A DNA stretch of 64,000 bases from Nemertoderma westbladi (taxonomy: Eukaryota > Animalia > Xenacoelomorpha): contig JAUCBJ010002753.1 of the NCBI GenBank assembly GCA_032718475.1, forward strand, positions 1 through 64,000, in the 5' to 3' direction. A model generated the notes under the pieces. The model was given only the letters and a program-made list of their open reading frames with translations, was not told where the DNA came from and did not search any database. Both the position numbers and the translations under genes were made by a program. This document shows, piece by piece, positions 1 to 38,700 of this stretch; within the stretch, counting starts at the first letter, position 1; each line of letters opens with the position of its first letter.

Positions 1-3000
1 CAGGTAGGAGAATGTAACGGGATGACATTACCGATAAAACCGTCGCACAGGTAGGAGAATGTAACGGGATGACATTACCGATAAAACCGTCGCACAGGTA
101 GGAGAATGTAACGGGATGACATTACCGATAAAACCGTCGCACAGGTAGGAGAATGTAACGGGATGACATTACCGATAAAACCGTCGCACAGGTAGGAGAA
201 TGTAACGGGATGACATTGCCGATAAAACCGTCGCACAGGTAGGAGAATGTAACGGGATGACATTACCGATAAAACCGTCGCACAGGTAGGAGAATGTAAC
301 GGGATGACATTACCGATAAAACCGTCGCACAGGTAGGAGAATGTAACGGGATGACATTACCGATAAAACCGTCGCACAGGTAGGAGAATGTAACGGGATG
401 ACATTACCGATAAAACCGTCGCACAGGTAGGAGAATGTAACGGGATGACATTACCGATAAAACCGTCGCACAGGTAGGAGAATGTAACGGGATGACATTA
501 CCGATAAAACCGTCGCACAGGTAGGAGAATGTAACGGGATGACATTACCGATAAAACCGTCGCACAGGTAGGAGAATGTAACGGGATGACATTACCGATA
601 AAACCGTCGCACAGGTAGGAGAATGTAACGGGATGACATTACCGATAAAACCGTCGCACAGGTAGGAGAATGTAACGGGATGACATTACCGATAAAACCG
701 TCGCACAGGTAGGAGAATGTAACGGGATGACATTACCGATAAAACCGTCGCACAGGTAGGAGAATGTAACGGGATGACATTACCGATAAAACCGTCGCAC
801 AGGTAGGAGAATGTAACGGGATGACATTACCGATAAAACCGTCGCACAGGTAGGAGAATGTAACGGGATGACATTACCGATAAAACCGTCGCACAGGTAG
901 GAGAATGTAACGGGATGACATTACCGATAAAACCGTCGCACAGGTAGGAGAATGTAACGGGATGACATTACCGATAAAACCGTCGCACAGGTAGGAGAAT
1001 GTAACGGGATGACATTACCGATAAAACCGTCGCACAGGTAGGAGAATGTAACGGGATGACATTACCGATAAAACCGTCGCACAGGTAGGTGAATGTAACG
1101 GGATGACATTACAGATAAAACCGTCGCACAGGTAGGAGAATGTAACGGGATGACATTACCGATAAAACCGTCGCACAGGTAGGAGAATGTAACGGGATGA
1201 CATTACAGATAAAACCGTCGCACAGGTAGGAGAATGTAACGGGATGACATTACCGATAAAACCGTCGCACAGGTAGGAGAATGTAACGGGATGACATTAC
1301 AGATAAAACCGTAGCACAGGTAGGAGAATGTAACGGGATGACATTACCGATAAAACCGTCGCACAGGTAGGAGAATGTAACGGGATGACATTACCGATAA
1401 AACCGTCGCACAGGTAGGAGAATGTAACGGGATGACATTACCGATAAAACCGTCGCACAGGTAGGAGAATGTAACGGGATGACATTACCGATAAAACCGT
1501 CGCACAGGTAGGAGAATGTAACGGGATGACATTACCGATAAAACCGTCGCACAGGTAGGAGAATGTAACGGGATGACATTACCGATAAAACCGTCGCACA
1601 GGTAGGTGAATGTAACGGGATGACATTACAGATAAAACCGTCGCACAGGTAGGAGAATGTAATGGGATGACATTACCGATAAAACCGTCGCACAGGTAGG
1701 AGAATGTAACGGGATGACATTACAGATAAAACCGTCGCACAGGTAGGAGAATGTAACGGGATGACATTACCGATAAAACCGTCGCACAGGTAGGAGAATG
1801 TAACGGGATGACATTACAGATAAAACCGTAGCACAGGTAGGAGAATGTAACGGGATGACATTTCCGATAAAACCGTCGCACAGGTAGGAGAATGTAACGG
1901 GATGACATTAACATTACCGATAAAACCGTCGCACAGGTAGGAGAATGTAACGGGATGACATTACCGATAAAACCGTCGCACAGGTAGGAGAATGTAACGG
2001 GATGACATTACCGATAAAACCGTCGCACAGGTAGGAGAATGTAACGGGATGACATTACCGATAAAACCGTCGCACAGGTAGGAGAATGTAACGGGATGAC
2101 ATTACCGATAAAACCGTCGCACAGGTAGGAGAATGTAACGGGATGACATTAACATTACCGATAAAACCGTCGCTCGGGTAGGAGAATGTAACGGGATGAC
2201 ATTACCGATAAAACCGTCGCACAGGTAGGAGAATGTAACGGGATGACATTACCGATAAAACCGTCGCACAGGTAGGAGAATGTAACGGGATGACATTACC
2301 GATAAAACCGTCGCACAGGTAGGAGAATGTAACGGGATGACATTACCGATAAAACCGTCGCACAGGTAGGAGAATGTAACGGGATGACATTACCGATAAA
2401 ACCGTCGCACAGGTAGGAGAATGTAACGGGATGACATTACCGATAAAACCGTCGCACAGGTAGGAGAATGTAACGGGATGACATTACCGATAAAACCGTC
2501 GCACAGGTAGGATAATGTAACGGGATGACATTACCGATAAAACCGTCGCACAGGTAGGAGAATGTAACGGGATGACATTACCGATAAAACCGTCGCACAG
2601 GTAGGAGAATGTAACGGGATGACATTACCGATAAAACCGTCGCACAGGTAGGAGAATGTAACGGGATGACATTGCCGATAAAACCGTCGCACAGGTAGGA
2701 GAATGTAACGGGATGACATTGTCGATAAAACCGTCGCACAGGTAGGAGAATGTAACGGGATGACATTACCGATAAAACCGTCGCACAGGTAGGAGAATGT
2801 AACGGGATGACATTGCCGATAAAACCGTCGCACAGGTAGGAGAATGTAACGGGATGACATTACCGATAAAACCGTCGCACAGGTAGGAGAATGTAACGGG
2901 ATGACATTACCGATAAAACCGTCGCACAGGTAGGAGAATGTAACGGGATGACATTACCGATAAAACCGTCGCACAGGTAGGAGAATGTAACGGGATGACA

Positions 3001-6000
3001 TTACCGATAAAACCGTCGCACAGGTAGGAGAATGTAACGGGATGACATTACCGATAAAACCGTCGCTCAGGTAGGAGAATGTAACGGGATGACATTAACA
3101 TTACCGATAAAACCGTCGCACAGGTAGGAGAATGTAACGGGATGACATTACCGATAAAACCGTCGCACAGGTAGGAGAATGTAACGGGATGACATTACCG
3201 ATAAAACCGTCGCACAGGTAGGTGAATGTAACGGGATGACATTACCGATAAAACCGTCGCACAGGTAGGAGAATGTAACGGGATGACATTACCGATAAAA
3301 CCGTCGCACAGGTAGGAGAATGTAACGGGATGACATTACCGATAAAACCGTCGCACAGGTAGGAGAATGTAACGGGATGACATTACCGATAAAACCGTCG
3401 CACAGGTAGGAGAATGTAACGGGATGACATTACCGATAAAACCGTCGCACAGGTAGGAGAATGTAACGGGATGACATTACCGATAAAACCGTCGCACAGG
3501 TAGGAGAATGTAACGGGATGACATTACCGATAAAACCGTCGCACAGGTAGGAGAATGTAACGGGATGACATTACCGATAAAACCGTCGCACAGGTAGGAG
3601 AATGTAACGGGATGACATTACCGATAAAACCGTCGCACAGGTAGGAGAATGTAACGGGATGACATTACCGATAAAACCGTCGCACAGGTAGGAGAATGTA
3701 ACGGGATGACATTACCGATAAAACCGTCGCACAGGTAGGAGAATGTAACGGGATGACATTACCGATAAAACCGTCGCACAGGTAGGAGAATGTAACGGGA
3801 TGACATTACCGATAAAACCGTCGCACAGGTAGGAGAATGTAACGGGATGACATTACCGATAAAACCGTCGCACAGGTAGGAGAATGTAACGGGATGACAT
3901 TACCGATAAAACCGTCGCACAGGTAGGAGAATGTAACGGGATGACATTACCGATAAAACCGTCGCACAGGTAGGAGAATGTAACGGGATGACATTACCGA
4001 TAAAACCGTCGCACAGGTAGGTGAATGTAACGGGATGACATTACAGATAAAACCGTCGCACAGGTAGGAGAATGTAACGGGATGACATTACCGATAAAAC
4101 CGTCGCACAGGTAGGAGAATGTAACGGGATGACATTAACATTACCGATAAAACCGTCGCACAGGTAGGAGAATGTAACGGGATGACATTACCGATAAAAC
4201 CGTCGCACAGGTAGGAGAATGTAACGGGATGACATTACCGATAAAACCGTCGCACAGGTAGGAGAATGTAACGGGATGACATTACCGATAAAACCGTCGC
4301 ACAGGTAGGAGAATGTAACGGGATGACATTACCGATAAAACCGTCGCACAGGTAGGAGAATGTAACGGGATGACATTACCGATAAAACCGTCGCACAGGT
4401 AGGAGAATGTAACGGGATGACATTACCGATAAAACCGTCGCACAGGTAGGAGAATGTAACGGGATGACATTACCGATAAAACCGTCGCACAGGTAGGAGA
4501 ATGTAACGGGATGACATTAACATTACCGATAAAACCGTCGCTCGGGTAGGAGAATGTAACGGGATGACATTACCGATAAAACCGTCGCACAGGTAGGAGA
4601 ATGTAACGGGATGACATTACCGATAAAACCGTCGCACAGGTAGGAGAATGTAACGGGATGACATTACCGATAAAACCGTCGCACAGGTAGGAGAATGTAA
4701 CGGGATGACATTACCGATAAAACCGTCGCACAGGTAGGAGAATGTAACGGGATGACATTACCGATAAAACCGTCGCACAGGTAGGAGAATGTAACGGGAT
4801 GACATTACCGATAAAACCGTCGCACAGGTAGGAGAATGTAACGGGATGACATTACCGATAAAACCGTCGCACAGGTAGGAGAATGTAACGGGATGACATT
4901 ACCGATAAAACCGTCGCACAGGTAGGAGAATGTAACGGGATGACATTACCGATAAAACCGTCGCACAGGTAGGAGAATGTAACGGGATGACATTACCGAT
5001 AAAACCGTCGCACAGGTAGGATAATGTAACGGGATGACATTACCGATAAAACCGTCGCACAGGTAGGAGAATGTAACGGGATGACATTACCGATAAAACC
5101 GTCGCACAGGTAGGAGAATGTAACGGGATGACATTACCGATAAAACCGTCGCACAGGTAGGAGAATGTAACGGGATGACATTGCCGATAAAACCGTCGCA
5201 CAGGTAGGAGAATGTAACGGGATGACATTGTCGATAAAACCGTCGCACAGGTAGGAGAATGTAACGGGATGACATTACCGATAAAACCGTCGCACAGGTA
5301 GGAGAATGTAACGGGATGACATTGCCGATAAAACCGTCGCACAGGTAGGAGAATGTAACGGGATGACATTACCGATAAAACCGTCGCACAGGTAGGAGAA
5401 TGTAACGGGATGACATTACCGATAAAACCGTCGCACAGGTAGGAGAATGTAACGGGATGACATTACCGATAAAACCGTCGCACAGGTAGGAGAATGTAAC
5501 GGGATGACATTACCGATAAAACCGTCGCACAGGTAGGAGAATGTAACGGGATGACATTACCGATAAAACCGTCGCACAGGTAGGAGAATGTAACGGGATG
5601 ACATTACCGATAAAACCGTCGCTCAGGTAGGAGAATGTAACGGGATGACATTAACATTACCGATAAAACCGTCGCACAGGTAGGAGAATGTAACGGGATG
5701 ACATTGCCGATAAAACCGTCGCACAGGTAGGAGAATGTAACGGGATGACATTACCGATAAAACCGTCGCACAGGTAGGAGAATGTAACGGGATGACATTA
5801 CCGATAAAACCGTCGCACAGGTAGGAGAATGTAACGGGATGACATTGCCGATAAAACCGTCGCACAGGTAGGAGAATGTAACGGGATGACATTACCGATA
5901 AAACCGTCGCACAGGTAGGAGAATGTAACGGGATGACATTACCGATAAAACCGTCGCACAGGTAGGAGAATGTAACGGGATGACATTACCGATAAAACCG

Positions 6001-9000
6001 TCGCACAGGTAGGAGAATGTAACGGGATGACATTACCGATAAAACCGTCGCACAGGTAGGAGAATGTAACGGGATGACATTACCGATAAAACCGTCGCAC
6101 AGGTAGGAGAATGTAACGGGATGACATTACCGATAAAACCGTCGCACAGGTAGGAGAATGTAACGGGATGACATTACCGATAAAACCGTCGCACAGGTAG
6201 GTGAATGTAACGGGATGACATTACAGATAAAACCGTCGCACAGGTAGGAGAATGTAACGGGATGACATTACAGATAAAACCGTAGCACAGGTAGGAGAAT
6301 GTAACGGGATGACATTACCGATAAAACCGTCGCACAGGTAGGAGAATGTAACGGGATGACATTACCGATAAAACCGTCGCACAGGTAGGAGAATGTAACG
6401 GGATGACATTACCGATAAAACCGTCGCACAGGTAGGAGAATGTAACGGGATGACATTACCGATAAAACCGTCGCACAGGTAGGAGAATGTAACGGGATGA
6501 CATTACCGATAAAACCGTCGCACAGGTAGGAGAATGTAACGGGATGACATTACCGATAAAACCGTCGCACAGGTAGGAGAATGTAACGGGATGACATTAC
6601 CGATAAAACCGTCGCACAGGTAGGAGAATGTAACGGGATGACATTACCGATAAAACCGTCGCACAGGTAGGTGAATGTAACGGGATGACATTACAGATAA
6701 AACCGTCGCACAGGTAGGAGAATGTAACGGGATGACATTACCGATAAAACCGTCGCACAGGTAGGAGAATGTAACGGGATGACATTACAGATAAAACCGT
6801 CGCACAGGTAGGAGAATGTAACGGGATGACATTACCGATAAAACCGTCGCACAGGTAGGAGAATGTAACGGGATGACATTACAGATAAAACCGTAGCACA
6901 GGTAGGAGAATGTAACGGGATGACATTACCGATAAAACCGTCGCACAGGTAGGAGAATGTAACGGGATGACATTACCGATAAAACCGTCGCACAGGTAGG
7001 GGAATGTAACGGGATGACATTACCGATAAAACCGTCGCACAGGTAGGAGAATGTAACGGGATGACATTACCGATAAAACCGTCGCACAGGTAGGAGAATG
7101 TAACGGGATGACATTACCGATAAAACCGTCGCACAGGTAGGAGAATGTAACGGGATGACATTACCGATAAAACCGTCGCACAGGTAGGTGAATGTAACGG
7201 GATGACATTACAGATAAAACCGTCGCACAGGTAGGAGAATGTAATGGGATGACCTTACCGATAAAACCGTCGCACAGGTAGGAGAATGTAACGGGATGAC
7301 ATTACAGATAAAACCGTCGCACAGGTAGGAGAATGTAACGGGATGACATTACCGATAAAACCGTCGCACAGGTAGGAGAATGTAACGGGATGACATTACA
7401 GATAAAACCGTAGCACAGGTAGGAGAATGTAACGGGATGACATTTCCGATAAAACCGTCGCACAGGTAGGAGAATGTAACGGGATGACATTAACATTACC
7501 GATAAAACCGTCGCACAGGTAGGAGAATGTAACGGGATGACATTACCGATAAAACCGTCGCACAGGTAGGAGAATGTAACGGGATGACATTACCGATAAA
7601 ACCGTCGCACAGGTAGGAGAATGTAACGGGATGACATTACCGATAAAACCGTCGCACAGGTAGGAGAATGTAACGGGATGACATTACCGATAAAACCGTC
7701 GCACAGGTAGGAGAATGTAACGGGATGACATTAACATTACCGATAAAACCGTCGCTCGGGTAGGAGAATGTAACGGGATGACATTACCGATAAAACCGTC
7801 GCACAGGTAGGAGAATGTAACGGGATGACATTACCGATAAAACCGTCGCACAGGTAGGAGAATGTAACGGGATGACATTACCGATAAAACCGTCGCACAG
7901 GTAGGAGAATGTAACGGGATGACATTACCGATAAAACCGTCGCACAGGTAGGAGAATGTAACGGGATGACATTACCGATAAAACCGTCGCACAGGTAGGA
8001 GAATGTAACGGGATGACATTACCGATAAAACCGTCGCACAGGTAGGAGAATGTAACGGGATGACATTACCGATAAAACCGTCGCACAGGTAGGATAATGT
8101 AACGGGATGACATTACCGATAAAACCGTCGCACAGGTAGGAGAATGTAACGGGATGACATTACCGATAAAACCGTCGCACAGGTAGGAGAATGTAACGGG
8201 ATGACATTACCGATAAAACCGTCGCACAGGTAGGAGAATGTAACGGGATGACATTGCCGATAAAACCGTCGCACAGGTAGGAGAATGTAACGGGATGACA
8301 TTGTCGATAAAACCGTCGCACAGGTAGGAGAATGTAACGGGATGACATTACCGATAAAACCGTCGCACAGGTAGGAGAATGTAACGGGATGACATTGCCG
8401 ATAAAACCGTCGCACAGGTAGGAGAATGTAACGGGATGACATTACCGATAAAACCGTCGCACAGGTAGGAGAATGTAACGGGATGACATTACCGATAAAA
8501 CCGTCGCACAGGTAGGAGAATGTAACGGGATGACATTACCGATAAAACCGTCGCACAGGTAGGAGAATGTAACGGGATGACATTACCGATAAAACCGTCG
8601 CACAGGTAGGAGAATGTAACGGGATGATATTACTGATAAAACCGTCGCTCAGGTAGGAGAATGTAACGGGATGACATTAACATTACCGATAAAACCGTCG
8701 CACAGGTAGGAGAATGTAACGGGATGACATTACCGATAAAACCGTCGCACAGGTAGGAGAATGTAACGGGATGACATTACCGATAAAACCGTCGCACAGG
8801 TAGGTGAATGTAACGGGATGACATTACCGATAAAACCGTCGCACAGGTAGGAGAATGTAACGGGATGACATTACCGATAAAACCGTCGCACAGGTAGGAG
8901 AATGTAACGGGATGACATTACCGATAAAACCGTCGCACAGGTAGGAGAATGTAACGGGATGACATTACCGATAAAACCGTCGCACAGGTAGGAGAATGTA

Positions 9001-11500
9001 ACGGGATGACATTACCGATAAAACCGTCGCACAGGTAGGAGAATGTAACGGGATGACATTACCGATAAAACCGTCGCACAGGTAGGAGAATGTAACGGGA
9101 TGACATTACCGATAAAACCGTCGCACAGGTAGGAGAATGTAACGGGATGACATTACCGATAAAACCGTCGCACAGGTAGGAGAATGTAACGGGATGACAT
9201 TACCGATAAAACCGTCGCACAGGTAGGAGAATGTAACGGGATGACATTACCGATAAAACCGTCGCACAGGTAGGAGAATGTAACGGGATGACATTACCGA
9301 TAAAACCGTCGCACAGGTAGGAGAATGTAACGGGATGACATTACCGATAAAACCGTCGCACAGGTAGGAGAATGTAACGGGATGACATTACCGATAAAAC
9401 CGTCGCACAGGTAGGAGAATGTAACGGGATGACATTACCGATAAAACCGTCGCACAGGTAGGAGAATGTAACGGGATGACATTACCGATAAAACCGTCGC
9501 ACAGGTAGGAGAATGTAACGGGATGACATTACCGATAAAACCGTCGCACAGGTAGGAGAATGTAACGGGATGACATTACCGATAAAACCGTCGCACAGGT
9601 AGGTGAATGTAACGGGATGACATTACAGATAAAACCGTCGCACAGGTAGGAGAATGTAACGGGATGACATTACCGATAAAACCGTCGCACAGGTAGGAGA
9701 ATGTAACGGGATGACATTAACATTACCGATAAAACCGTCGCACAGGTAGGAGAATGTAACGGGATGACATTACCGATAAAACCGTCGCACAGGTAGGAGA
9801 ATGTAACGGGATGACATTACCGATAAAACCGTCGCACAGGTAGGAGAATGTAACGGGATGACATTACCGTTAAAACCGTCGCACAGGTAGGAGAATGTAA
9901 CGGGATGACATTACCGATAAAACCGTCGCACAGGTAGGAGAATGTAACGGGATGACATTACCGATAAAACCGTCGCACAGGTAGGAGAATGTAACGGGAT
10001 GACATTACCGATAAAACCGTCGCACAGGTAGGAGAATGTAACGGGATGACATTACCGATAAAACCGTCGCACAGGTAGGAGAATGTAACGGGATGACATT
10101 AACATTACCGATAAAACCGTCGCTCGGGTAGGAGAATGTAACGGGATGACATTACCGATAAAACCGTCGCACAGGTAGGAGAATGTAACGGGATGACATT
10201 ACCGATAAAACCGTCGCACAGGTAGGAGAATGTAACGGGATGACATTACCGATAAAACCGTCGCACAGGTAGGAGAATGTAACGGGATGACATTACCGAT
10301 AAAACCGTCGCACAGGTAGGAGAATGTAACGGGATGACATTACCGATAAAACCGTCGCACAGGTAGGAGAATGTAACGGGATGACATTACCGATAAAACC
10401 GTCGCACAGGTAGGAGAATGTAACGGGATGACATTACCGATAAAACCGTCGCACAGGTAGGAGAATGTAACGGGATGACATTACCGATAAAACCGTCGCA
10501 CAGGTAGGAGAATGTAACGGGATGACATTACCGATAAAACCGTCGCACAGGTAGGAGAATGTAACGGGATGACATTACCGATAAAACCGTCGCACAGGTA
10601 GGATAATGTAACGGGATGACATTACCGATAAAACCGTCGCACAGGTAGGAGAATGTAACGGGATGACATTACCGATAAAACCGTCGCACAGGTAGGAGAA
10701 TGTAACGGGATGACATTACCGATAAAACCGTCGCACAGGTAGGAGAATGTAACGGGATGACATTGCCGATAAAACCGTCGCACAGGTAGGAGAATGTAAC
10801 GGGATGACATTGTCGATAAAACCGTCGCACAGGTAGGAGAATGTAACGGGATGACATTACCGATAAAACCGTCGCACAGGTAGGAGAATGTAACGGGATG
10901 ACATTGCCGATAAAACCGTCGCACAGGTAGGAGAATGTAACGGGATGACATTACCGATAAAACCGTCGCACAGGTAGGAGAATGTAACGGGATGACATTA
11001 CCGATAAAACCGTCGCACAGGTAGGAGAATGTAACGGGATGACATTACCGATAAAACCGTCGCACAGGTAGGAGAATGTAACGGGATGACATTACCGATA
11101 AAACCGTCGCACAGGTAGGAGAATGTAACGGGATGACATTACCGATAAAACCGTCGCACAGGTAGGAGAATGTAACGGGATGACATTACCGATAAAACCG
11201 TCGCTCAGGTAGGAGAATGTAACGGGATGACATTAACATTACCGATAAAACCGTCGCACAGGTAGGAGAATGTAACGGGATGACATTGCCGATAAAACCG
11301 TCGCACAGGTAGGAGAATGTAACGGGATGACATTACCGATAAAACCGTCGCACAGGTAGGAGAATGTAACGGGATGACATTACCGATAAAACCGTCGCAC
11401 AGGTAGGAGAATGTAACGGGATGACATTGCCGATAAAACCGTCGCACAGGTAGGAGAATGTAACGGGATGACATTACCGATAAAACCGTCGCTCAGGTAG
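1..11500 (+). repeat. 47-bp minisatellite (CAGGTAGGAGAATGTAACGGGATGACATTACCGATAAAACCGTCGCA)n, about 244 copies, runs off the left edge
   Basis: Near-perfect tandem unit read directly; rare variants include a 6-bp insertion (CATTAACATTA) and GTGAAT, TTACAG, TTGCCG, GCTCGG substitutions; ends at GCTCAGGTAG. Confidence 0.99.
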
Positions 11501-11639: not shown

Positions 11640-11763
11640 AGTGAACCCCATTAGAGGAGACAACACTGACAACATGGGAGTCATAGAAATCCTAGATCTC
11701 TTGAATAAACACGTCGCTAGTGGTTTCTCTAGCATTAAACAAGCCTTTCTCTCATTCGATAAT
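11640..11763 (+). CDS. EFCAB6: EFCAB6-like exon 1 (window numbering)
   Basis: tattacag|A GTG AAC ... GAT AAT|gtaagt; (R)VNPIRGD...KQAFLSFDN; preceded by a phase-2 intron. Confidence 0.85.
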
Positions 11764-23700: not shown

Positions 23701-26700
23701 GGACACCACACACAAGTGGTTTAACACCTTGTGGGACACCAACACACAAGTGGTTTAACACCTTGTGGGACACCACACACAAGTGGTTTAACACCTTGTG
23801 GGACACCAACACATAAGTGGTTTAACACCTTGTGGGACACCACACACAAGTGGTTTAACACCTTGTGGGACACCAACCCACAAGTGGTTTAACACCTTGT
23901 GGGACACTACACACAAGTGGTTTAACACCTTGTGGGACACCACACACAAGTGGTTTAACACCTTGTGGGACACCACACACAAGTGGTTTAACACCTTGTG
24001 GGACACCACACACAAGTGGTTTAACACCTTGTGGGACACCACACACAAGTGGTTTAACACCTTGTGGGACACCACACACAAGTGGTTTAACACCTTGTGG
24101 GATACCAACATACAAGTGGTTTAACACCTTGTGGGACACCACACACAAGTGGTTTATCACCTTGTGGGACACCACACACAAGTGGTTTAACACCTTGTGG
24201 GACACCACACACAAGTGGTTTAACACCTTGTGGGACACCAACACACAAGTGGTTTAACACCTTGTGGGACACCACACACAAGTGGTTTAACACCTTGTGG
24301 GACACCAACCCACAAGTGGTTTAACACCTTGTGGGACACTACACACAAGTTGTTTAACACCTTGTGGGACACCACACACAAGTGGTTTAACACCTTGTGG
24401 GACACTACACACAAGTGGTTTAACACCTTGTGGGACACCACACACAAGTGGTTTAACACCTTGTGGGATACCAACATACAAGTGGTTTAACACCTTGTGG
24501 GACACCACACACAAGTGGTTTATCACCTTGTGGGACACCACACACAAGTGGTTTAACACCTTGTGGGACACCACACACAAGTGGTTTAACACCTTGTGGG
24601 ACACCACACACAAGTGGTTTAACACCTTGTGGGACACCACACACAAACACCTTGTGGGACACCACACACAAGTGGTTTAACACCTTGTGGGACACAACAC
24701 ACAAGTGGTTTAAAGGTTGAGGTGAAATCGCCTATTGACACAATTTGTGTTCTAGAATTAAGATAGCTGGATAATAATTGGTGTGGGAGGCCTCGGATAC
24801 CATATGCGGATAATTTGTGGAGCAAAATGTTATGGTGTAGGGTATCGAAGGCTTTTTTAAAATCGATATATATTGCACAAGTTGAGTTTTTATTGTCTAG
24901 GGCGTATACGATTACACAGATACAACTTATTTACAAACGTCTCGCAGCATCTGTAAATAATGTAATTATTGTAATTTATTTTCCGTTGTAAAATTTTTAT
25001 TATAAAAAATTATTATTAAATTTAAATTATTATATTTTGTTGTTGGATGTGTCACCGCATGGAGAGCCAGCGATCACGATTCGATGATCGGTTACTTAGC
25101 GAAAAAGAGATTTTAGTTTCTATATATTATACCATATATTTTTAATCTTTTATATAATGTTATTTTAACTGTCGATATAAAGTAAATGTTACAGTTTCTG
25201 TAATTTTAATTATAATGTTACTGTCACCAGTTACGTTAGTAACCAACCGATTAAAAAATGTGTAACAAATCATTAACCAAACCAAGTTACGGTATCTTTT
25301 TATTTCTTAATTTCTCAGACATTGCGTGAAGCTTTCTATAAGATGGATGCAGACCACGATGGGTTCATACGACGAGCAGACTTCCGGCAAATAATGGACC
25401 AGTTTATGTTCTACATCGACGATACGCAGTTCAGGAAGTACATGGAGCATCTCGGTATCACACCTAAAAGTCGTCTAGGATATCGGGATTTCCTTAACTT
25501 ATTCGAAGAAAAGGAAACCGCACCAACGTGGCTCGATTCTAAACACAGGTAGGGGTGTTAGAACCAAAGTGGCTCGATTCTAAACACAGGTAGGGGTGTT
25601 AGCACCAACGTGGCTCGATTCTAAACACATGTAGGGGTGTTAGCACCACGTGGCTCCTTTCTAGCACCACACAGGTAGGGGTGTTAGCACCAACATGGCT
25701 CGATTCTAAAAATAGGTAGAGGTGTTAGCACCACTTGGCTCAATTCTAAACACAGGTAGGGGTGTTAGCACCAACGTGGCTCGATCCTAAACACAGATAG
25801 GGGTGTTAGCACCACGTGGCTCCTTTCTAGCACCACTTGGCTCGATTCTAAACACAGGTAGGGGTGTTAGCACCACTTGGCTCGATTCTAAACACAGGTA
25901 GGGGTGTTAGCACCAACGTGGCTCGATTCTAAACACAGGTAGGGGTGTTAGCACCAACGTGACTTGATTCTAAACACAGGTAGGGGTGTTAGCACCACTT
26001 GGCTCGGTTCTAAACACAGGTAGGGGTGTTAGCACCAACGTGGCTCGATTCTAAACACAGATAGGGGTGTTAGCACCACGTGGCTCCTTTCTAGCACCAC
26101 TTGGCTCGATTCTAAACACAGGTAGGGGTGTTAGCACCACTTGGCTCGATTCTAAACACAGGTAGGGGTGTTAGCACCAACGTGGCTCGATTCTAAACAC
26201 AGGGAGGGGTGTTAGAACCACGTGGCTCCTTTTAGCACCACTTGGCTCGATTCTAAACACAGGTAGGAGTGTTAGCACCACTTGGCTCGATTCTAAACAC
26301 AGGTAGGGGTGTTAGCACCAACGTGGCTCGATTCCAAACACAGGTAGGGGTGTTAGAACCACGTGGCTCCTTTCTAGCACCACTTGGCTCGATTCTAAAC
26401 ACAGGTAGGTGTGTTAGCACCACTTGGCTCGATTCTAAACACAGGTAGGGGTGTTAGCACCAACGTGGCACGATTCTAAACACAGGTAGGGGTGTTAGCA
26501 CCAACATGGCTCGATTCTAAAAATAGGTAGAGGTGTTAGCACCACTTGGCTCGATTCTAAACACAGGTAGGGGTGTTAGCACCAACGTGGCTCGATTCTA
26601 AACACAGGTAGGGGTGTTAGCACCACGTGGCTCCTTTCTAGCACCACTTGGCTCGATTCTAAACACAGGTAGGAAGTGTTAGCACCACTTGGCTCCATTC

Positions 26701-29700
26701 TAAACACAGGTAGGGGTGTTAGCACCAACGTGGCTCGATTCCAAACACAGGTAGGGGTGTTAGCACCACTTGGCTCGATTCTAAACACAGGTAGGGGTGT
26801 TAGCACCAACGTGGCTCGATTCTAAACACAGGTAGGGGTGTTAGAACCACGTGGCTCCTTTTTAGCACCACTTAGCTCGATTCTAAACACAGGTAGGGGT
26901 GTTAGCACCAACGTGGCTCGATTCCAAACACAGGTAGGGGTGTTAGCACCACTTGGCTCGATTCTAAACACAGGTAGGGGTGTTAGCACCAACGTGGCTC
27001 GATTCTAAACACAGGTAGGGGTGTTAGAACCACGTGGCTCCTTTTTAGCACCACTTAGCTCGATTCTAAACACAGGTAGGGGTGTTAGCACCACTTGGCT
27101 CGATTCTAAACACAGGTAGGGGTGTTAGCACCAACGTGGCTCGATTCTAAACACAGGTAGGGGTGTTAGAACCACGTGGCTCCTTTCTAGCACCACTTGG
27201 CTCGATTCTAAACACAGGTAGGGGTGTTAGCACCACTTGGCTCGATTCTAAACACAGGTAGGGGTGTTAGCACCAACGTGGCTCGATTCTAAACACAGGT
27301 AGGGGTGTTAGAACCACGTGGCTCCTTTTTAGCACCACTTAGCTCGATTCTAAACACAGGTAGGTGTGTTAGCACCACTTGGCTCGATTCTAAAAATAGG
27401 TAGGGGTGTTAGCACCACGTGGCTCCTTTCTAGCACCACTTGCCTCGATTCTAAACACAGGTAGGGGTGTTAGCACCACTTAGCTCGATTCTAAACACAG
27501 GTAGGGGTGTTAGCACCACTTGACTCGATTCTAAACACAGGTAGGGGTGTTAGCACCACTTGACTCGATTCTAAACACAGGTAGGGGTGTTAGCACCAAC
27601 GTGGCTCGATTCTAAACACAGGTAGGGGTGTTAGAACCACGTGGCTCCTTTCTAGCACCACTTGGCTCGATTATAAACACAGGTAGGTGTGTTAGCACCA
27701 CTTGGCTCGATTCTAAACACAGGTAGGGGTGTTAGCACCAACGTGGCTCGATTCTAAACACAGGTAGGGGTGTTAGCACCAACATGGCTCGATTCTAAAA
27801 ATAGGTAGAGGTGTTAGCACTACTTGGCTCGATTCTAAACACAGGTAGGGGTGTTAGCACCAACGTGGCTCGATTTTAAACACAGGTAGGGGTGTTAGAA
27901 CCACGTGGCTCCTTTTTAGCACCACTTAGCTCGATTCTAAACACAGGTAGGTGTGTTAGCACCACTTGGCTCGATTCTAAAAATAGGTAGGGGTGTTAGC
28001 ACCATTTGGCTCGATTCTAAAAATAGGTAGGGGTGTTAGAACCACGTGGCTCCTTTCTAGCACCACTTGGCTCGATTCTAAACACAGGTAGAGGTGTTAG
28101 CACCAACGTGGCTCGATTCTAAACACAGGTAGGGGTGTTAGCACCACGTGGCTCCTTTCTAGCACCACTTAGCTCGATTTTAAACACAGGTAGGGGTGTT
28201 AGCACCACTTGACTCGATTCTAAACACAGGTAGGGGTGTTAGCACCAACGTGGCTCGATTCTAAACACAGGTAGGGGTGTTAGAACCACGTGGCTCCTTT
28301 CTAGCACCACTTGGCTCGATTATAAACACAGGTAGGTGTGTTAGCACCACTTGGCTCGATTCTAAACACAGGTAGGGGTGTTAGCACCAACGTGGCTCGA
28401 TTCTAAACACAGGTAGGGGTGTTAGCACCAACATGGCTCGATTCTAAAAATAGGTAGAGGTGTTAGCACTACTTGGCTCGATTCTAAACACAGGTAGGGG
28501 TGTTAGCACCAACGTGGCTCGATTCTAAACACAGGTAGGGGTGTTAGCACCAACATGGCTCGATTCTAAAAATAGGTAGAGGTGTTAGCACTACTTGGCT
28601 CGATTCTAAACACAGGTAGGGGTGTTAGCACCAACGTGGCTCGATTCTAAACACAGGTAGGGGTGTTAGAACCACGTGGCTCCTTTTTAGCACCACTTAG
28701 CTCGATTCTAAACACAGGTAGGTGTGTTAGCACCATTTGGCTCGATTCTAAAAATAGGTAGGGGTGTTAGCACCACGTGGCTCCTTTCTAGCACCACTTG
28801 CCTCGATTCTAAATACAGGTAGGGGTGTTAGCACCACTTAGCTCGATTCTAAACACAGGTAGGGGTGTTAGCACCACTTGACTCGATTCTAAACACAGGT
28901 AGAGGTGTTAGCACCAACGTGGCTCGATTCTAAACACAGGTAGGGGTGTTAGAACCACGTGGCTCCTTTCTAGCACCACTTGGCTCGATTCTAAACACAG
29001 GTAGGGGTGTTAGCACCAACGTGGCTCGATTCTAAACACAGGTAGGGGTGTTAGAACCACGTGGCTCCTTTCTAGCACCACTTGGCTCGATTATAAACAC
29101 AGGTAGGTGTGTTAGCACCACTTGGCTCGATTCTAAACACAGGTAGGGGTGTTAGCATCAACGTGGCTCGATTCTAAACACAGGTAGGGGTGTTAGCACC
29201 AACATGGCTCGATTCTAAAAATAGGTAGAGGTGTTAGCACCAACGTGGCTCGATTCCAAACACAGGTAGGGGTGTTAGAACCACGTGGCTCCTTTCTAGC
29301 ACCACTTGGCTCGATTCTAAACACTGGTAGGGGTGTTAGCACCATTTGGCTCGATTCTAAAAATAGGTAGGGGTGTTAGCACCACGTGGCTCCTTTCTAG
29401 CACCACTTGGCTCGATTCTAAACACTGGTAGGGGTGTTAGCACCACTTGGCTCGATTCTAAACACAGGTAGGGGTGTTAGCACCAACGTGGCTCGATTCC
29501 AAACACAGGTAGGGGTGTTAGAACCACGTGGCTCCTTTCTAGCACCACTTGGCTCGATTCTAAACACTGGTAGGGGTGTTAGCACCATTTGGCTCGATTC
29601 TAAAAATAGGTAGGGGTGTTAGAACCACGTGGCTCCTTTCTAGCACCACTTGGCTCGATTCTAAACACTGGTAGGGGTGTTAGCACCATTTGGCTCGATT

Positions 29701-32700
29701 CTAAAAATAGGTAGGGGTGTTAGAACCACGTGGCTCCTTTCTTGCACCACTTGGCTCGATTATAAACACAGGTAGGTGTGTTAGCACCACTTGGCTCGAT
29801 TCTAAACACAGGTAGGGGTGTTAGCATCAACGTGGCTCGATTCTAAACACAGGTAGGGGTGTTAGCACCAACATGGCTCGATTCTAAAAATAGGTAGAGG
29901 TGTTAGCACCAACGTGGCTCGATTCCAAACACAGGTAGGGGTGTTAGAACCACGTGGCTCCTTTCTAGCACCACTTGGCTCGATTCTAAACACTGGTAGG
30001 GGTGTTAGCACCATTTGGCTCGATTCTAAAAATAGGTAGGGGTGTTAGCACCACGTGGCTCCTTTCTAGCACCACTTGGCTCGATTCTAAACACTGGTAG
30101 GGGTGTTAGCACCACTTGGCTCGATTCTAAACACAGGTAGGGGTGTTAGCACCAACGTGGCTCGATTCTAAACACAGGTAGGGGTGTTAGCACCAACATG
30201 GCTCGATTCTAAAAATAGGTAGAGGTGTTAGCACCACTTGGCTCGATTCTAAACACAGGTAGGGGTGTTAGCACCAACGTGGCTCGATTCTAAACACAGG
30301 TAGGGGTGTTAGCACCACGTGGCTCCCTTCTAGCACCACTTGGCTCGATTCTAAACACAGGTAGGAGTGTTAGCACCACTTGGCTCGATTCTAAACACAG
30401 GTAGGGGTGTTAGCACCAACGTGGCTCGATTCCAAACACAGGTAGGGGTGTTAGTGTTAGAACCACGTGGCTCCTTTCTAGCACCACTTGGCTCGATTCT
30501 AAACACAGGTAGGGGTATTAGCACCACTTGGCTCGATTCTAAAAATAGGTAGGGGTGTTAGCACCACGTGGCTCCTTTCTAGCACCACTTGGCTCGATTC
30601 TAAACACTGGTAGGGGTGTTAGCACCACTTGGCTCGATTCTAATCACAGGTAGGGGTGTTAGCACCAACGTGGCTCGATTCTAAACACAGGTAGGGGTGT
30701 TAGCACCAACATGGCTCGATTCTAAAAATAGGTAGAGGTGTTAGCACCACTTGGCTCGATTCTAAACACAGGTAGGGGTGTTAGCACCAACGTGGCTCGA
30801 TTCTAAACACAGGTAGGGGTGTTAGCACCACGTGGCTCCTTTCTAGCACCCCTTGGCTCGATTATAAACACAGGTAGGAGTGTTAGCACCACTTGTCTCG
30901 ATTCTAAACACAGGTAGGGGTGTTAGCACCAACGTGGCTCGATTCTAAACACAGGTAGGGGTGTTAGAACCACGTGGCTCCTTTCTAGCACCACTTGGCT
31001 CGATTCTAAACACAGGTATGGGTGTTAGCACCACTTGGCTCGATTCTAAAAATAGGTAGGGGTGTTAGCACCAACGTGGCTCGATTCTAAACACAGGTAG
31101 GGGTGTTAGAACCACGTGGCTCCTTTCTAGCACCACTTGGCTTGATTCTAAACACAGGTAGGTGTGTTAGCACCACTTGGCTCGATTCTAAACACAGGTA
31201 GGGGTGTTAGCACCAACGTGGCTCGATTCCAAACACAGGTAGGGGTGTTAGCACCACGTGGCTCCTTTCTAGCACCACTTGGCTCGATTCTAAACACAGG
31301 TAGGGGTGTTAGCACCAACGTGGCTCGATTCTAAACACAGGTAGGGGTGTTAGCACCAACGTGGCTCGATTCTAAACACAGGTAGGGGTGTTAGCACCAC
31401 TTGGCTCGATTCTAAACACAGGTAGGGGTGTTAGCTCCACGTGGCTCCTTTCTAGCACCACTTGGCTCGATTCTAAACACAGGTAGGGGTGTTAGCACCA
31501 ACGTGGCTCGATTCTAAACACAGGTAGGGGTGTTAGCACCAACGTGGCTCGATTCTAAACACAGGTAGGGGTGTTAGCACCAACGTGGCTCGATTCTAAA
31601 CACAGGTAGGGGTGTTAGCACCACTTGGCTCGATTCTAAACACAGGTAGGTGTGTTAGCACCAATGTGGCTCGATTCTAAACACAGGTAGGTGTGTTAGC
31701 ACCAACGTGGCTCGATTCTAAGGACAGGTAGGGGTGTTAGCACCACTTGGCTCGATTCTAAACACAGGTAGGTGTGTTAGCACCAACATGGCTCGATTCT
31801 AAACACAGGTAGGTGTGTTAGCACCAACGTGGCTCGATTCTAAACACAGGTAAGGGTGTTAGAACCAAAGTGGCTCGATTCTAAACACAGGTAGGGGTGT
31901 TAGCACCACTTGGCTCGATTCTAAACACAGGTAGGTGTGTTAGCACCAACGTGGCTCGATTCTAAGCAAAGGTGGGGGTGTTAGCACCAATGTGATGTCA
32001 CATATCTCCAGTGCCACAACAAATTTTGTAACACTTCCATTGAATCTCAGTTTCTGAGATTATTGTCGAAAATTCATGTTATGTAGTGTGAATTATAATC
32101 AGAGGTTAATGTGAATTATTTATTAATAATTTTGTTGATAATATGGTTTATTATAAGTGTATAAGCTTAAAACTTCAGTTTATATAATTTCCTAAATATT
32201 ATTTTTTAATAATTAGTAATTATGCGTTAATTAGGTATAATGATACATATGACCCTTGTGAACTCGGTGCGGGTCAGGTTCATGAGATGCTCAAATCTAA
32301 AGCTAGAGGGCGCTTCCATGATTTGTCACGTGCGTTCGGAGCACTGGTCGCACGTGATGGTGGTTACATCACGAAGAAACACTTCCAGCGGATGTTGTGG
32401 CAGTTCAACTTGCCTATGACTCCGGGCGAATTCGATAAGCTCTGGAGGCGGTGAGTTTAATATGGTTGGCTATTTGAAAATATGTCGCGAAATCTATGTA
32501 ATTATTTTACATAATTACAAATAGCCAACCTGCGTCAACGGATTGGTTCTGTGTGCAGGCAGGTAATGCTGCTTGTATCAAGGAATCGTTTGGCCCAGGC
32601 ATGGGAGTCTTACAGAGATAATTATGGGCCCTAGATTCGGCATCCATTGTCATTTGTCATTTCCATAGTATTTCCTTACCAGTTTTAATGTGATAATTTT

Positions 32701-35700
32701 TTTTTATTATTATTTTAATTTTTTTTTATTTTTTTCTTTCAGTTTGTGATATCTGCAAATTCTTACTCGTCCTATTAACGCTTTACCTTTATATTCTCTT
32801 ATATCTTACTGTGGTTTTTAAAATTTAATATTAATTTGTGTAATTTATAGGCCTATTTGGTTTCGTAATATTTTGGTATAATTTAGTGTATTTTAACCAT
32901 TCATCTTTCCTAATATGTTGATTAAAATTTGTGTAATTTAGACAAACGTGTATGAAATTGTGCTGTACACTTTGTGAACTGTATGTATTATTATTATTTA
33001 TTCATTTATTAATTCACAACGATTAACAAATACAAAAATTAATACTGACATTATTTTTATTCTTAAATTGTTACTTTTTCGCTCGAATATACTAGTGGTT
33101 AAACGGGATCAGACTCTTCGGGATTTCCGGGATCGGGACCGGGATTATCACTCTCGGGATCCCGATTTTCGGCATCGGGATTCGAATTTTGAATTCGATT
33201 TTCTTAAAGTTTTCAGTATATTATATTACTGTGTTCGTATAAAACGGATTTTTGGCGAAATTATATCACTTTATTTCATACTGCTGAAATATTTTGTCTG
33301 ATAAAATATAATAAAATTTATTTATAGTTGATTACTGGAATCCAGTAATCCGACAATTCGATGTAATCAATAGATTTCTCTTCATCGCGATTCTCTCGTC
33401 CCTTTATTAACCTCGCTGGCGTTCGTTAAATTAAATGCCTCGGGAATAATGAAAAAAAGTTCTACCTTTTTTTTTTTTTTTAATAAAGATTCTTATTTCC
33501 AGTAAAATAATGCAATTTAGCTATCAGCATTAGGAATTATTGTTGAAAGGGAAATTTTGTGAAATAAGATTTTGTATTGCAGGAAAGATTCTTCCCCTAT
33601 TGAACTCTTGATAATTAACCTAGCTCGCTTCGCAAAGACTACATCACAGTGTCAGGGGGAAAATACCCCTTTGTTTTCCGTGTAATAATAACTAATTATT
33701 TATCTTTTATCTTTCAACGTATAATAGATAAATATCGATGTATTTGGAGAAAGTTTCTCACAATTTTGTTTATCGTTTACTTCATATATTCGCATTTTGT
33801 TTCTCCGTTTAGCTACGATGCGGACGGGGCTGGTAAACTTTCCTTCAAGGCTTTCCAACAGCTCCTCGGGCTGGAGTTCTCGCCTGGGGACAACCACGGC
33901 GTGTCTCGTCGGATAGCCGAAGGTAGTGCGGAGGCGTTCACGGTCCATCTAGCTGGGCAGGAGGAGCGCCAGGAAGGAATGGCGGTCCAACAGATGAGAG
34001 CGACAAGTATACTCACCGCCCGGGAGGTAGAGGAACACCTCAAGTGAGTTGCATATTGTCCTCATATTGTCCTGGACCTTATAGTCTTTATTATCCGCAC
34101 TTTGCGGACACTACAGGGGATATTTTAAAGAAAGAAAATTATGATAATTTTTTTTATCAAACATAATAATTTATTCGTTTAATATTATCGCAGGGATCGT
34201 TTTAGAGATAATTACCAGGACCTCCACGCCGCCTTTAGGAAGGTCGACCTCAATAAAGACGGATTCTTGTCAGTGCAAGAATTCCAGAAAGTTCTCGCGG
34301 ATATGAATTACATTATGGATATGGAGACCTTCATCGAATTACTCGAAAGGTATGTTACCGTGCTTTATGCGAACAGCTCTTTGTACACCAGATATTCCAA
34401 GATATTCAATAGTGTTATGGTTATTGTCATGGAACCAGAGGCTCTTGGATTTTATTCTAGAATATATTTTAATAAACACAATTTAGATATTTTCTACAGT
34501 AGGCCTTTCTGATATTCGAATTGCTAATATAATATTAATCACATTGAATCGGTAATAGTTAATTTTAGAGGTTGTTAAATTTATATTTTCAGTCTCGGAT
34601 CATTAATTCAATAATTATCAATTAATTTATCGAGCTGAATTTTTCAGAGTAGATACCTAAGATCCGAGGAATAACATCGAATTCTACACTCATCATCATT
34701 CTCATCAGTTATATGGCTATAGTACTCTATGCTGATTGCCTGTATATATTTTATAACATATAACATAATAACACTTAGTGTTATATGTCATGAGCAAAAA
34801 GTCTCAAAGACTACTTACTACATTGGTTCAAGGCATTCTAGAACCGTGGAAAATGTCCTAGAACATTGCAAAATATTATAGAACAGTGCTAAATGTTCTA
34901 GAACAGTTCAAAAGCTTCTAGAATAGTGCACAATCTTCTATAGCAGTTCAAAGGGTTCTATATAGTGCCAATTGTTTTATAAAAGTTCAAAAGGTTCTAG
35001 AATAGTGCAAAATGTTCTAGTGCAGGGTAAATGATATTTTTAATTCTATTTATCCGGTTTAGTTTGTATTTATGAATGTGCATGTAGTATATCTACCAAT
35101 TACAAAAAGTAATTACTATTATTATGATGTAGTGCAGGGAGACCTCAAGTGACAATATTATAATATATAAACCACAGTTTTAGCAAGCTTTCACACACAG
35201 GGCTTCTTCCGGCTAAGAGTACAATAAAATTGAGCACCGAAAAAGCTTGGAAAATCTACGTGAAAGCTAGCTAGAACTGTGGGCTATTTATTTGTAGTCA
35301 TTTGAGGTCTCCCCGCATTAGTAATAGTAATCACGATCACACTAGTGGCGAGAGCGGGTCGGTATTTGTATACTGATTACTAAAAGCAGTGTATGAATTC
35401 ATGGTTTCCTGTGTCACATGTTATTCCTGTAGGACCTAGGCAAGTACTTACTCTGAGTAATTCAACTTTATAAACATTTACTTGATATATTTCACTATAC
35501 ATTTTTGGGATTAATCTGCGATAAGTTTATTCTCAACAGCTGTAACTTTTTGAGTCGGTAAGTTTAGATTTTGCTTGAATTGTGTGACATTATTTCCTTA
35601 ACTGGATCTTAAACATTTTATAGGAAAAAGCTCAGTCTGATCAATGAAATCAAACTTTAATAATGTATTACGGTAAATTGTTTATATGTTTTAAATATTT

Positions 35701-38700
35701 TACGGTAAATATTTTAGTCTTATATAGAAATATTTGACCGTTACAGGCTAGGTTTATAGAAACATTTGTCCGTTACAGGCTAGGTTTATAAAAACATTTG
35801 TCCGTTACAGGCTAGGTTTATAGAAACATTTGTCCGTTACAGGCTAGGTTTATAAAAACATTTGTCCGTTACAGGCTAGGTTTATAGAAGCATTTGTCCA
35901 TTACATGCTAGGTTTATAGAAACATTTGTCCGTTACAGGCTAGGTTTATAGAAACATTTGTCCATTACAGGCTAGGTTTATAAAGACATTTGTCCGTTAC
36001 AGGCTAGGTTTATAGAAGCATTTGTCCGTTACAGGCTAGGTTTATATAAACATTTGTCCGTTACAGGCTAGGTTTATAGAAACATTTGTCCATTACAGGC
36101 TAGGTTTATAAAGACATTTATCCGTTACAGGCTAGGTTTATAAAAACATTTGTCCGTTACAGGCTAGGTTTATAGAAGCATTTGTCCATTACATGCTAGG
36201 TTTATAGAAACATTTGTCCGTTACAGGCTAGGTTTATAGAAACATTTGTCCATTACAGGCTAGGTTTATAAAGACATTTGTCCGTTACAGGCTAGGTTTA
36301 TAGAAGCATTTGTCCGTTACAGGCTAGGTTTATATAAACATTTGTCCGTTACAGGCTAGGTTTATAGAAACATTTGTCCATTACAGGCTAGGTTTATAAA
36401 GACATTTATCCGTTACAGGCTAGGTTTATAGAAACATTTGTCGGTTACAGGCTAGGTTTATATAAACATTTGTCCGTTACAGGCTAGGTTTATAGAAGCA
36501 TTTGTCCATTACATGCTAGGTTTATAAAGACATTTGTCCGTTACAGGCTAGGTTTATAGAAACATTTGTCCGTTACAGGCTAGGTTTATATAAACATTTG
36601 TCCGTTACAGGCTAGGTTTATAGAAGCATTTGTCCATTACATGCTAGGTTTATAAAGACATTTGTCCGTTACAGGCTAGGTTTATAGAAACATTTGTCCG
36701 TTACAGGCTAGGTTTATAGAAGCATTTGTCCATTACAGGCTAGGTTTATAGAAGCATTTGTCCATTACATGCTAGGTTTATAAAGACATTTGTCCGTTAC
36801 AGGCTAGGTTTATAGAAACATTTGTCCGTTACAGGCTAGGTTTATAGAAGCATTTGTCCATTACAGGCTAGGTTTATAAAGACATTTGTCCGTTACAGGC
36901 TAGGTTTATAGAAACATTTGTCCGTTACAGGCTAGGTTTATAGAAACATTTGTCCGTTACAGGCTAGGTTTATATAAACATTTGTCCGTTACAGGCTAGG
37001 TTTATAGAAGCATTTGTCCATTACAGGCTAGGTTTATAAAGACATTTGTCCGTTACAGGCTAGGTTTATAGAAACATTTGTCCGTTACAGGCTAGGTTTA
37101 TAGAAACATTTGTCCGTTACAGGCTAGGTTTATATAAACATTTGTCCGTTACAGGCTAGGTTTATAGAAACATTTGTCCGTTACAGGCTAGGTTTATAGA
37201 AGCATTTGTCCATTACAGGCTAGGTTTATAAAGACACTTGTCCGTTACAGGCTAGGTTTATAGAAACATTTGTCCGTTACAGGCTAGGTTTATAGAAGCA
37301 TTTGTCCATTACAGGCTAGGTTTATAAAGACATTTGTCCGTTACAGGCTAGGTTTATAGAAGCATTTGTCCATTACAGGCTAGGTTTATAAAGACATTTG
37401 TCCGTTACAGGCTAGGTTTATAGAAACATTTATCCGTTACAGGCTAGGTTTATATAAACATTTGTCCGTTACAGGCTAGGTTTATAGAATCATTTATCCG
37501 TTACAGGCTAGGTTTATAGAAACATTTGTCCGTTACAGGCTAGGTTTATATAAACATTTGTCCGTTACAGGCTAGGTTTACCAACAAACGAATCTCGCTT
37601 TTCCTACACTCGTTTTCTGGAGGCTATAGACGAAGGAATGCATCCGCGGTTCAAACGCCAAGCCGTTTTCGCAGAAGGTCCTGAACATTTTGAACATATG
37701 AGTGTCAGCAATGCGATGGCGAAGCTCGCTGAGAGAACTACGAACAACATGAAAGCTATCGTTTCTGTGAGTTTCCGTTACTTAGTCCCGGACTTATTGT
37801 TTATTGTTCTGAAACGTTATTTGTTTTTTGCTTTCTAGTAATTATTTAGTAGGCTGTGTTCGTTATATTTCTCGCAACAGTAGGAGTCGGTTTACTAGCG
37901 GAGCGCAAAGAGGCAAGTGAAGTAGACAAGAAGTACTTTTATCAACGGGATTTATGTAATTATATTCAAAAATTGAAACATATATTTCCGACTTTCCGAT
38001 GAGGCACTGTTTAAAATAAAATTAATTAAATATAAATAATTTCATTTACAGGTACCGTACAGTGTTTATCGCCAATACTACTGTTTGATATGCTGATTGA
38101 TACCGGAACAACAGCACAGTATATATTGTATATGAATCTGAAACTAAAATTTTACAATAGCTGTAGTACCGGTACCTTGGTTCACTTATTGTAATAATTT
38201 GAGTGTGAGCGGCAGATAAGGGGATATTTTCGACGCAATAAAAATTCATATTAATTCGCCGGATATTAATTTGCCAACATGGGATTTGCGTCCAGTTTCC
38301 CCCCGGACATAAAATATAAACTTTTTTGACGTTGTTGAAACTGACAGAGGTAATAAATGTTTCAACTTTTTAATAAATAATATTAATAATAATGCTTAAA
38401 ATTGGACCTCTTCAATCACATCCCTACTTCATTAGGACTATATACACATAAATTCTCCCTTGGTTTAACACAACTGGTCTGGCCGTTTACTATTTATTTA
38501 TTTAGGCTTTCCATTCGTTTGATAAAACTGGAGTGGGACGCGTAAAGGGCCAGGATTTCCGACGAATCCTCGATAACTTCTGTTTCCGTCTCAATGACTC
38601 CCAATGGAACGGTCTGCTCTCTCATCTACACGTCTTTGACGATCTCACACTCAACTACAACGATTTCCTCGAAACATTTGTGTCTGAAGATTCAGTTGTA

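Follow-up and report, generated by a model that had tools for sequence, protein, structure and literature searches.

An EFCAB6-like gene of Nemertoderma westbladi carries a junction-spanning minisatellite in which the donor site of one exon recurs about 140 times

How can an exon be joined correctly to the next one if the intron between them consists almost entirely of copies of the exon's own donor splice site, and how does such an intron arise? The question is raised by contig JAUCBJ010002753.1 of the Nemertoderma westbladi assembly GCA_032718475.1, of which positions 1 to 64,000 were analysed (the window). On the + strand of the window lie the middle portion and the 3′ part of a gene with multiple EF-hands that resembles EFCAB6. 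At the end of the exon numbered 7 in the window a minisatellite starts within the coding sequence, crosses the exon–intron junction and fills nearly all of intron 7. The array is a junction-spanning ('mirage') minisatellite, a type that has already been described, and represents no new mechanism. It has likely grown by slippage or unequal exchange, and the gene likely tolerates it, since the first donor is predicted to be the only one that splicing uses. For this reading as a whole we estimate a probability of about 0.8. The coordinates of the features are collected in Table 1.

Tandem Repeats Finder returned overlapping rows over the whole array, with periods of 40, 41, 61, 81, 101 and 142. 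The first unit is formed by exon 7's final 29 bases and the initial 12 of intron 7. Its exonic part is coding (GCA CCA ACG TGG CTC GAT TCT AAA CAC AG, read as APTWLDSKH(R)) and is followed by GTAGGG. Scanning with a 23-nt core located 141 in-register copies of the donor position, which begin with the authentic one at 25549 and end at 31972; a further copy, in a 44-nt unit at ~25675, was seen in the sequence and lies outside these 141. The copies are arranged head to tail, with a spacing of 41 nt in 59 cases, 40 nt in 46 and 61 nt in 32. The segments comprise 60 of 41 nt, ~77 of 40 nt and ~35 truncated ones of 21 nt, which have no donor, and their frequent order 41-21-40-40 produces a common higher-order unit of 142 nt. 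When a 28-nt pattern was searched for with at most three mismatches, 140 matches were found, all on the + strand within 25530-31980, against 0 expected from 100 shuffles. Sixty of the matches are exact, and 27 41-mers are equal to the first unit.

The dinucleotide GT is retained in 138 of the 141 copies and AGGT in 130. The 9-mer of the authentic site, CAGGTAGGG (CAG/GTAGGG), occurs in 88 copies. The other donor 9-mers are CAGGTAGGT (14 copies), TAGGTAGGG (10), TAGGTAGAG (9), CTGGTAGGG (7) and CAGGTAGGA (4), two that were found twice each (CAGATAGGG and CAGGTAGAG) and five that were found once each (CATGTAGGG, CAGGGAGGG, CAGGTATGG, CAGGTAAGG and AAGGTGGGG). Weakened forms of the site are CTGGT (7 copies), CAGAT (2), CAGGG (1) and CATGT (1). 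The nearest intronic copy, 41 nt downstream, is identical to the first donor over 28 nt. The intronic part of the array amounts to 6,446 nt. These counts bear out the anatomy given by an earlier sequence-only reading of the stretch, which had described an exon-7 donor amplified more than 100 times, an intron 7 consisting to about 96% of copies that it took for decoy donors and filled to within about 240 nt of exon 8, a coding first unit (APTWLDSKH-AG/GTAGGG), a donor kept in the majority of copies, the weakened forms CTGGT, CAGAT and CAGGG, and 21-bp units without a donor.

Table 1. Features of the EFCAB6-like gene and of its junction-anchored arrays, in the order of their positions in the window
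Feature	Position	Strand	Basis
Array 1, donor-anchored, 47-nt unit, at least 243 copies, start beyond the window	1..11500	+	Tandem Repeats Finder, translation
Exon downstream of array 1, reads (R)VNPIRGDN...	11640..11763	+	orthologues
Exon 7 (window numbering), EF-hand pair, ends ...APTWLDSKH + AG	25319..25548	+	frame/acceptor, Pfam EF-hand_7 + EF-hand_11, tblastn of orthologues
Minisatellite, ~174 segments, 141-142 donor-position copies including the authentic one	25520..31994	+	Tandem Repeats Finder, core scan, pattern match
Predicted authentic 5′ splice site CAG/GTAGGG, GT at 25549-25550	25546..25554	+	contiguous orthologue alignments
Intron 7, 6,686 nt, 96.4% array	25549..32234	+	sequence
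Unique AT-rich tail of intron 7, 240 nt, acceptor TTAATTAG at its end	31995..32234	+	sequence
Exon 8, begins G TAT AAT GAT = (R)YND directly after TTAATTAG	32235..32450	+	frame, orthologues
Exon 10, ends ...LLE + AG	34194..34349	+	orthologues
Acceptor-anchored array, 58 copies, 32-nt unit with TTACAG/GCTAGGTT	35723..37580	+	Tandem Repeats Finder; orthologues contiguous across LLER/LGLPTNESRFSY
Exon 11	37571..37766	+	orthologues

Other identities of the array were considered and rejected. It has no long open reading frame (ORF) and thus is not coding sequence; it has no match in Rfam, whose matches in the window are two tRNAs only (~21.2 and 21.7 kb), and is not taken for an RNA gene. Recursive splicing at each AG/GT was rejected on account of the weak pyrimidine tract: GGCTCGATTCTAAACACAG, which precedes the AG, consists, as judged by eye, of about half purines. 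The possibility that the exon was captured from a satellite was rejected as well; the end of the exon is conserved in orthologues, and the unit is present nowhere else in the window.

Comparison with related proteins points to the first copy as the donor that yields the protein. Three of three orthologues (a Saccoglossus-like and a Clavelina-like protein and a third one) aligned without gaps across a 25548/32235 junction, the window sequence WLDSKHR/YNDTYDP corresponding to WLNSTHR/YNHIKDP, WLNSEHR/FNKTRSS and WLDSDHR/FNEVIDP. Searching with exon 7 by full HMMER brought up 293 relatives, and for the best 23 of these the junction was mapped to the window. Six of the 23 are contiguous at the junction residue. 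Two stop short on both sides, the gap in the protein equalling the unaligned codons, four are off by 1-8 residues, six are uninformative with best matches from different internal repeats, and five lack one of the two matches. When exon 7 was compared with longer proteins by a word-based search, 24 candidates came up, of which none was significant. All three orthologues share the motif WL(D/N)SxHR at the end of the exon, and so do the relatives with alignments that extend to the junction. Given this conservation in the orthologues the exon part of the unit is ancestral, and the exon copy is the source of the array, not a captured repeat.

Splicing at 25548/32235 is predicted to restore the conserved protein. 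Reading on past the first donor gives CAC AGG TAG (...WLDSKHR*); therefore, with any later donor translation would meet a stop one codon past the junction, at the cost of the C-terminal 40% of the protein. Transcripts with such an early stop would be degraded by nonsense-mediated decay. Contiguity of the orthologues together with the immediate TAG makes it likely that the first donor is the one in use. The sequence-only reading had favoured this donor on the strength of an internal match, WLDSDHRYND; the three orthologues, the contiguous relatives and the in-frame TAG now extend the argument, still at the level of the predicted protein.

The host gene was recognised by its exons, which match EF-hand families including EF-hand_11 (Pfam). 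The best relatives that bear a name come from Saccoglossus and Clavelina; these proteins, 'EF-hand calcium-binding domain-containing protein 6-like', are 51-58% identical over the last exon. No close relative turned up in the protein collection, where the best EFCAB6 relatives are ~50% identical. When three EFCAB6-like proteins were aligned by tblastn, the exons fell into a colinear order between 11640 and 48636, and the reading frames are intact in every exon examined. The label 'exon 7', taken over from the sequence-only reading, is correct for the seventh exon visible in the window and does not hold as the gene's own count: the window begins at about residue 380-440 of orthologue proteins that are ~1,500 residues long. 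Between two homologous internal repeats of the protein the position of the intron (12044/14957 and 25548/32235) differs by ~9 codons; the former intron precedes SHKWLDSDHRYND and the latter follows WLDSKHR.

Two further arrays of the same gene are anchored at splice junctions. In array 1, which reaches the window from its left end, GT is present in 243 of 243 visible copies. The unit translates to ECNGMTLPIKPSHR*, which corresponds to the end of the upstream exon followed by CAG/GTAGGA. At this position the orthologues read EGNGQTIPIKWNHK/VNPIR, and the next exon of the window begins with (R)VNPIR. The translation of the unit and the match to the orthologues therefore identify array 1 as a second, larger donor array. 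The third array is anchored at an acceptor: its last copy comprises the real 3′ splice site and the first bases of exon 11. AG is kept in 53 of its 58 copies, the losses all lying far from the exon, and translation that enters from one of the upstream copies meets a stop (G CTA GGT TTA TAG).

Altogether eight minisatellite arrays, their units 23-47 nt long, occupy 31,167 nt of the window (48.7% of 64 kb), and seven of the eight lie within introns of the EFCAB6-like gene. Five arrays do not include a junction: 12118-14625, 23288-24713, 39423-40281, 43494-47744 and 49590-51879. Those at 43494-47744 and 12118-14625 begin 42 and 73 nt past a donor, respectively, and their introns would measure ~260 and ~400 nt without them; once the arrays are removed, several array-bearing introns have only 250-400 nt. 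The 33-nt array at 23288-24713 is situated inside a reverse-transcriptase ORF (− strand, 22500-23351) of a LINE-like element in intron 6, and is the same kind of expansion within a transposon. The 39-nt array at 39423-40281 directly adjoins an ORF (40289-40714) with the look of a partial retroelement protein, and may belong to that element.

The exon 7 array shares its defining traits with a known class of repeats. It is a head-to-tail array in which the authentic boundary is the terminal unit, the exon copy is the source and many copies carry the splice signal. Such 'mirage' minisatellites have been reported from the amphioxus genes Adh3, troponin C, globins BflGb6 and BflGb9, and PGBD5 (PMC3087553, PMC3902484), and, found at 5′ as well as 3′ boundaries, they are reported to leave splicing undisturbed (PMC3087553, PMC3902484). 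Like the amphioxus examples, the arrays of the EFCAB6-like gene consist of head-to-tail copies across exon–intron boundaries of both kinds, with AG/GT in many units, and they resemble them also in concerted evolution, with edge units that stay outside homogenisation. They differ in number: the globin mirages described have 3-6 units of 150-160 bp, whereas here 141, at least 243 and 58 copies are found in a single gene.

The closest parallel for the choice of the donor is provided by intron 7 of human F7, where the first monomer of a 37-bp variable number tandem repeat spans the exon–intron boundary (PMC1557585, Borensztajn et al. 2006). According to this study splicing takes only the most upstream among 5-9 identical sites, even in competition with improved or stronger pseudo-sites, and when the first site is destroyed, the later ones take over in order (PMC1557585). 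In both genes identical pseudo-sites come after the authentic donor, and the first site gives the normal mRNA, in the EFCAB6-like gene by prediction. The F7 repeat has 5-9 copies with 4 exon bases per unit, as opposed to ~141 copies with 29 exon bases, and site use was tested with 50 constructs in F7 whereas here it is deduced. The same source lists other human minisatellites that span a boundary: those of IFI 6-16 intron 2 (25 pseudo-sites), CBS intron 13 (15-20 repeats), LMNB2 (10-15 × 100 bp) and PDGF intron 4 (16-18 × 81 bp) (PMC1557585). They too have their first unit across the exon–intron boundary, and all of them have fewer copies than the array described here. A model in which introns are gained when a stretch across an AGGT proto-splice site is tandemly duplicated (PMC3087553, PMC3265369) has in common with our case that a tandem duplication containing AG/GT makes extra splice signals. 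Unlike in that model, the unit found here already holds 12 bases of an existing intron; therefore, the intron predates the array, which enlarges and does not create it.

We propose that the first unit, with its 29 exon and 12 intron bases, was multiplied by slippage or unequal exchange, and that the exon's CAG/GTAGGG donor came in this way to recur ~140 more times within intron 7. A short intron of perhaps ~252 nt (the 12 first bases plus the 240-nt tail, from which the original size is deduced) would thus have swollen to 6.7 kb. The first donor would win by 5′-to-3′ or exon-definition selection, as has been shown experimentally for human F7, and occasional transcripts made from a later donor would be removed by decay. 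The array would have no function of its own and would be one of three junction-anchored mirage arrays in the gene. Most likely it came about as minisatellites grew in short introns, a by-product that the gene tolerates, and its harmlessness is most probably due to the choice of the first donor and to the predicted stop codon behind every copy.

The internal structure of the array contains signs of turnover. Exact runs of 425 nt at a lag of 669 and of 344 nt at a lag of 649 reveal that blocks of several units were duplicated recently, and these recent duplications are indirect signs of turnover. The variant AACCAAAGTGG is found only at 25558, in the first intronic unit, and at 31859, near the far end. 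This placement fits old edge units flanking a homogenised centre, the pattern that has been described for amphioxus mirages (PMC3087553).

Some observations do not sit comfortably with a fully neutral array and a single donor. Fifteen copies (CAGGTAGGT in 14, CAGGTAAGG in 1) are nearer to the MAG/GTRAGT consensus than the authentic site. Pseudo-sites are not always silent: in IFI 6-16 and CBS the two nearest ones are also used (PMC1557585). With these human cases, the copies nearer to consensus and the 28-nt identity of the nearest copy, some leakage to later donors would be plausible. GT is lost at three positions (25797, 26061 and 26203), all within the first 17 copies (P=0.0015 by cells). 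The losses at 25797 and 26061 are one event that was copied by a 264-nt duplication, so that the total is two events (P=0.015). Divergence elsewhere in the unit is not raised near the exon (0.018 versus 0.024). Selection against copies close to the exon could account for this pattern, and the array would then not be fully neutral. The assembled copy number of a 6.5-kb array may be inexact, and three of the seven intronic arrays span a junction where random seeding would give 1.12 (P=0.063).

Part of this evidence would be explained if later donors were used substantially and the array were a mildly harmful load, a reading that we regard as unlikely. It would draw support, besides the leakage argument, from an enrichment of sites weakened at position -1, +1, +2 or +5 in the first 17 copies (5/17 near the exon versus 10/123 elsewhere; Fisher P=0.02, counted in cells, not in events). 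Against it stand the strict first-site use in the F7 experiments (PMC1557585), the intact reading frames of the exons examined and the acceptor array, in which AG is not lost near the exon. The suggestion of the sequence-only reading that exon-proximal copies lose GT faster is no more than hinted at by the three losses (two events) of the donor array and finds no echo in the acceptor array. A general rule of signal loss nearest the exon was rejected on the same ground: in the acceptor array (58 units) AG is lost from units 6, 15, 25, 29 and 33, and none of the 25 closest to the exon has lost it. Another proposal, that ~140 U1-binding sites form a functional device that tunes EFCAB6 output, either through stop and decay after later donors or through U1 held on the intron, appears very improbable to us. 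The retention of GT in nearly all copies, the many sites identical to the real one, the TAG immediately behind every later donor and the absence of AATAAA and ATTAAA from the array (0 occurrences) are compatible with it. However, the high identity of the donors is explained by recent amplification, not by selection: the donor 9-mer deviates from the consensus at a rate of 0.050, against 0.021 for the remaining 23 scored positions, and donor bases that are kept no better than their surroundings in the unit give no indication of being selected for. In addition, the donor is wholly lost in ~35 units, unrelated arrays free of splice sites occupy other introns of the gene, and the F7 pseudo-sites are silent (PMC1557585). 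Of the first 16 sites, the first donor is predicted to be the least paired (0.45 versus 0.51-0.80), which could be read in favour of a device, but the difference is small and a prediction only; RNA structure as the reason why the first donor wins was rejected as too weak for the same reason.

The remaining alternatives concern the origin and the length of the array. That its length is an artefact of assembly, with copies collapsed or inflated, is hardly probable: long near-identical arrays are difficult to assemble, and an aberrantly assembled mirage has been noted in a draft genome (PMC3087553), but the ordered variant structure, the distinct edge units and the nested duplications would not be expected from collapse, and the junction-spanning repeat exists whatever the exact count. 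A further proposal is that junction sequence as such seeds minisatellites in this genome, triggered by a CAGG(T)AGG-type motif or by breaks linked to transcription or splicing. We consider it rather unlikely. The excess of arrays that span a junction is not significant, and the window itself was picked for a junction-spanning array; chance nearly accounts for the overlap. Because introns without their arrays have only ~250-400 nt, any array must sit near an exon. CACAG/GTAGG is common to both donor arrays, and the acceptor array has CAG/GCTAGG. The tetramer CAGG (+ strand) occurs in 6 of the 8 unit consensuses (nominal P=4.5e-6) and in 3 of the 5 arrays without a junction (nominal, uncorrected P=0.0028), but this motif was chosen post hoc, significance is gone after multiplication by the 256 possible 4-mers, and CAG/G is the plain consensus of both kinds of splice junction. 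The most far-reaching version, in which CAG/G(C)TAGG junctions seed arrays in a systematic, transcription- or motif-driven engine that has inflated short introns more than 25-fold and created hundreds of live splice sites, with selection disabling the copies nearest the true donor, seems quite improbable. We retain the tolerated, junction-spanning minisatellite as the preferred reading.

Two other features of the window were recorded. Intron 6 contains, on the + strand, tRNA-Val(AAC) at 21190-21264 and tRNA-Cys(GCA) at 21715-21786, which could be genes or the heads of tRNA-derived repeats. Downstream of the EFCAB6-like gene, at 61032-63716 on the + strand, a single ORF encodes a C2H2 zinc-finger protein of 894 residues, for which a word-based protein search found generic C2H2 relatives only (21-34% identity).

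What distinguishes the locus is its scale: ~140, at least 243 and 58 copies at three junctions, and an intron of which donor repeat makes up 96%. With ~140 copies here and at least 243 in the sister intron, the gene may hold some of the largest natural sets of identical 5′ splice sites that follow a real one, and these provide a strong test case for the choice of the first donor; such minisatellites were called an outstanding physiological model by the authors of the F7 study (PMC1557585). Junction-anchored arrays are also a trap for gene predictors. For the gene itself, the array shows how a single repeat can expand a short intron, likely of ~250 nt, to 6.7 kb.

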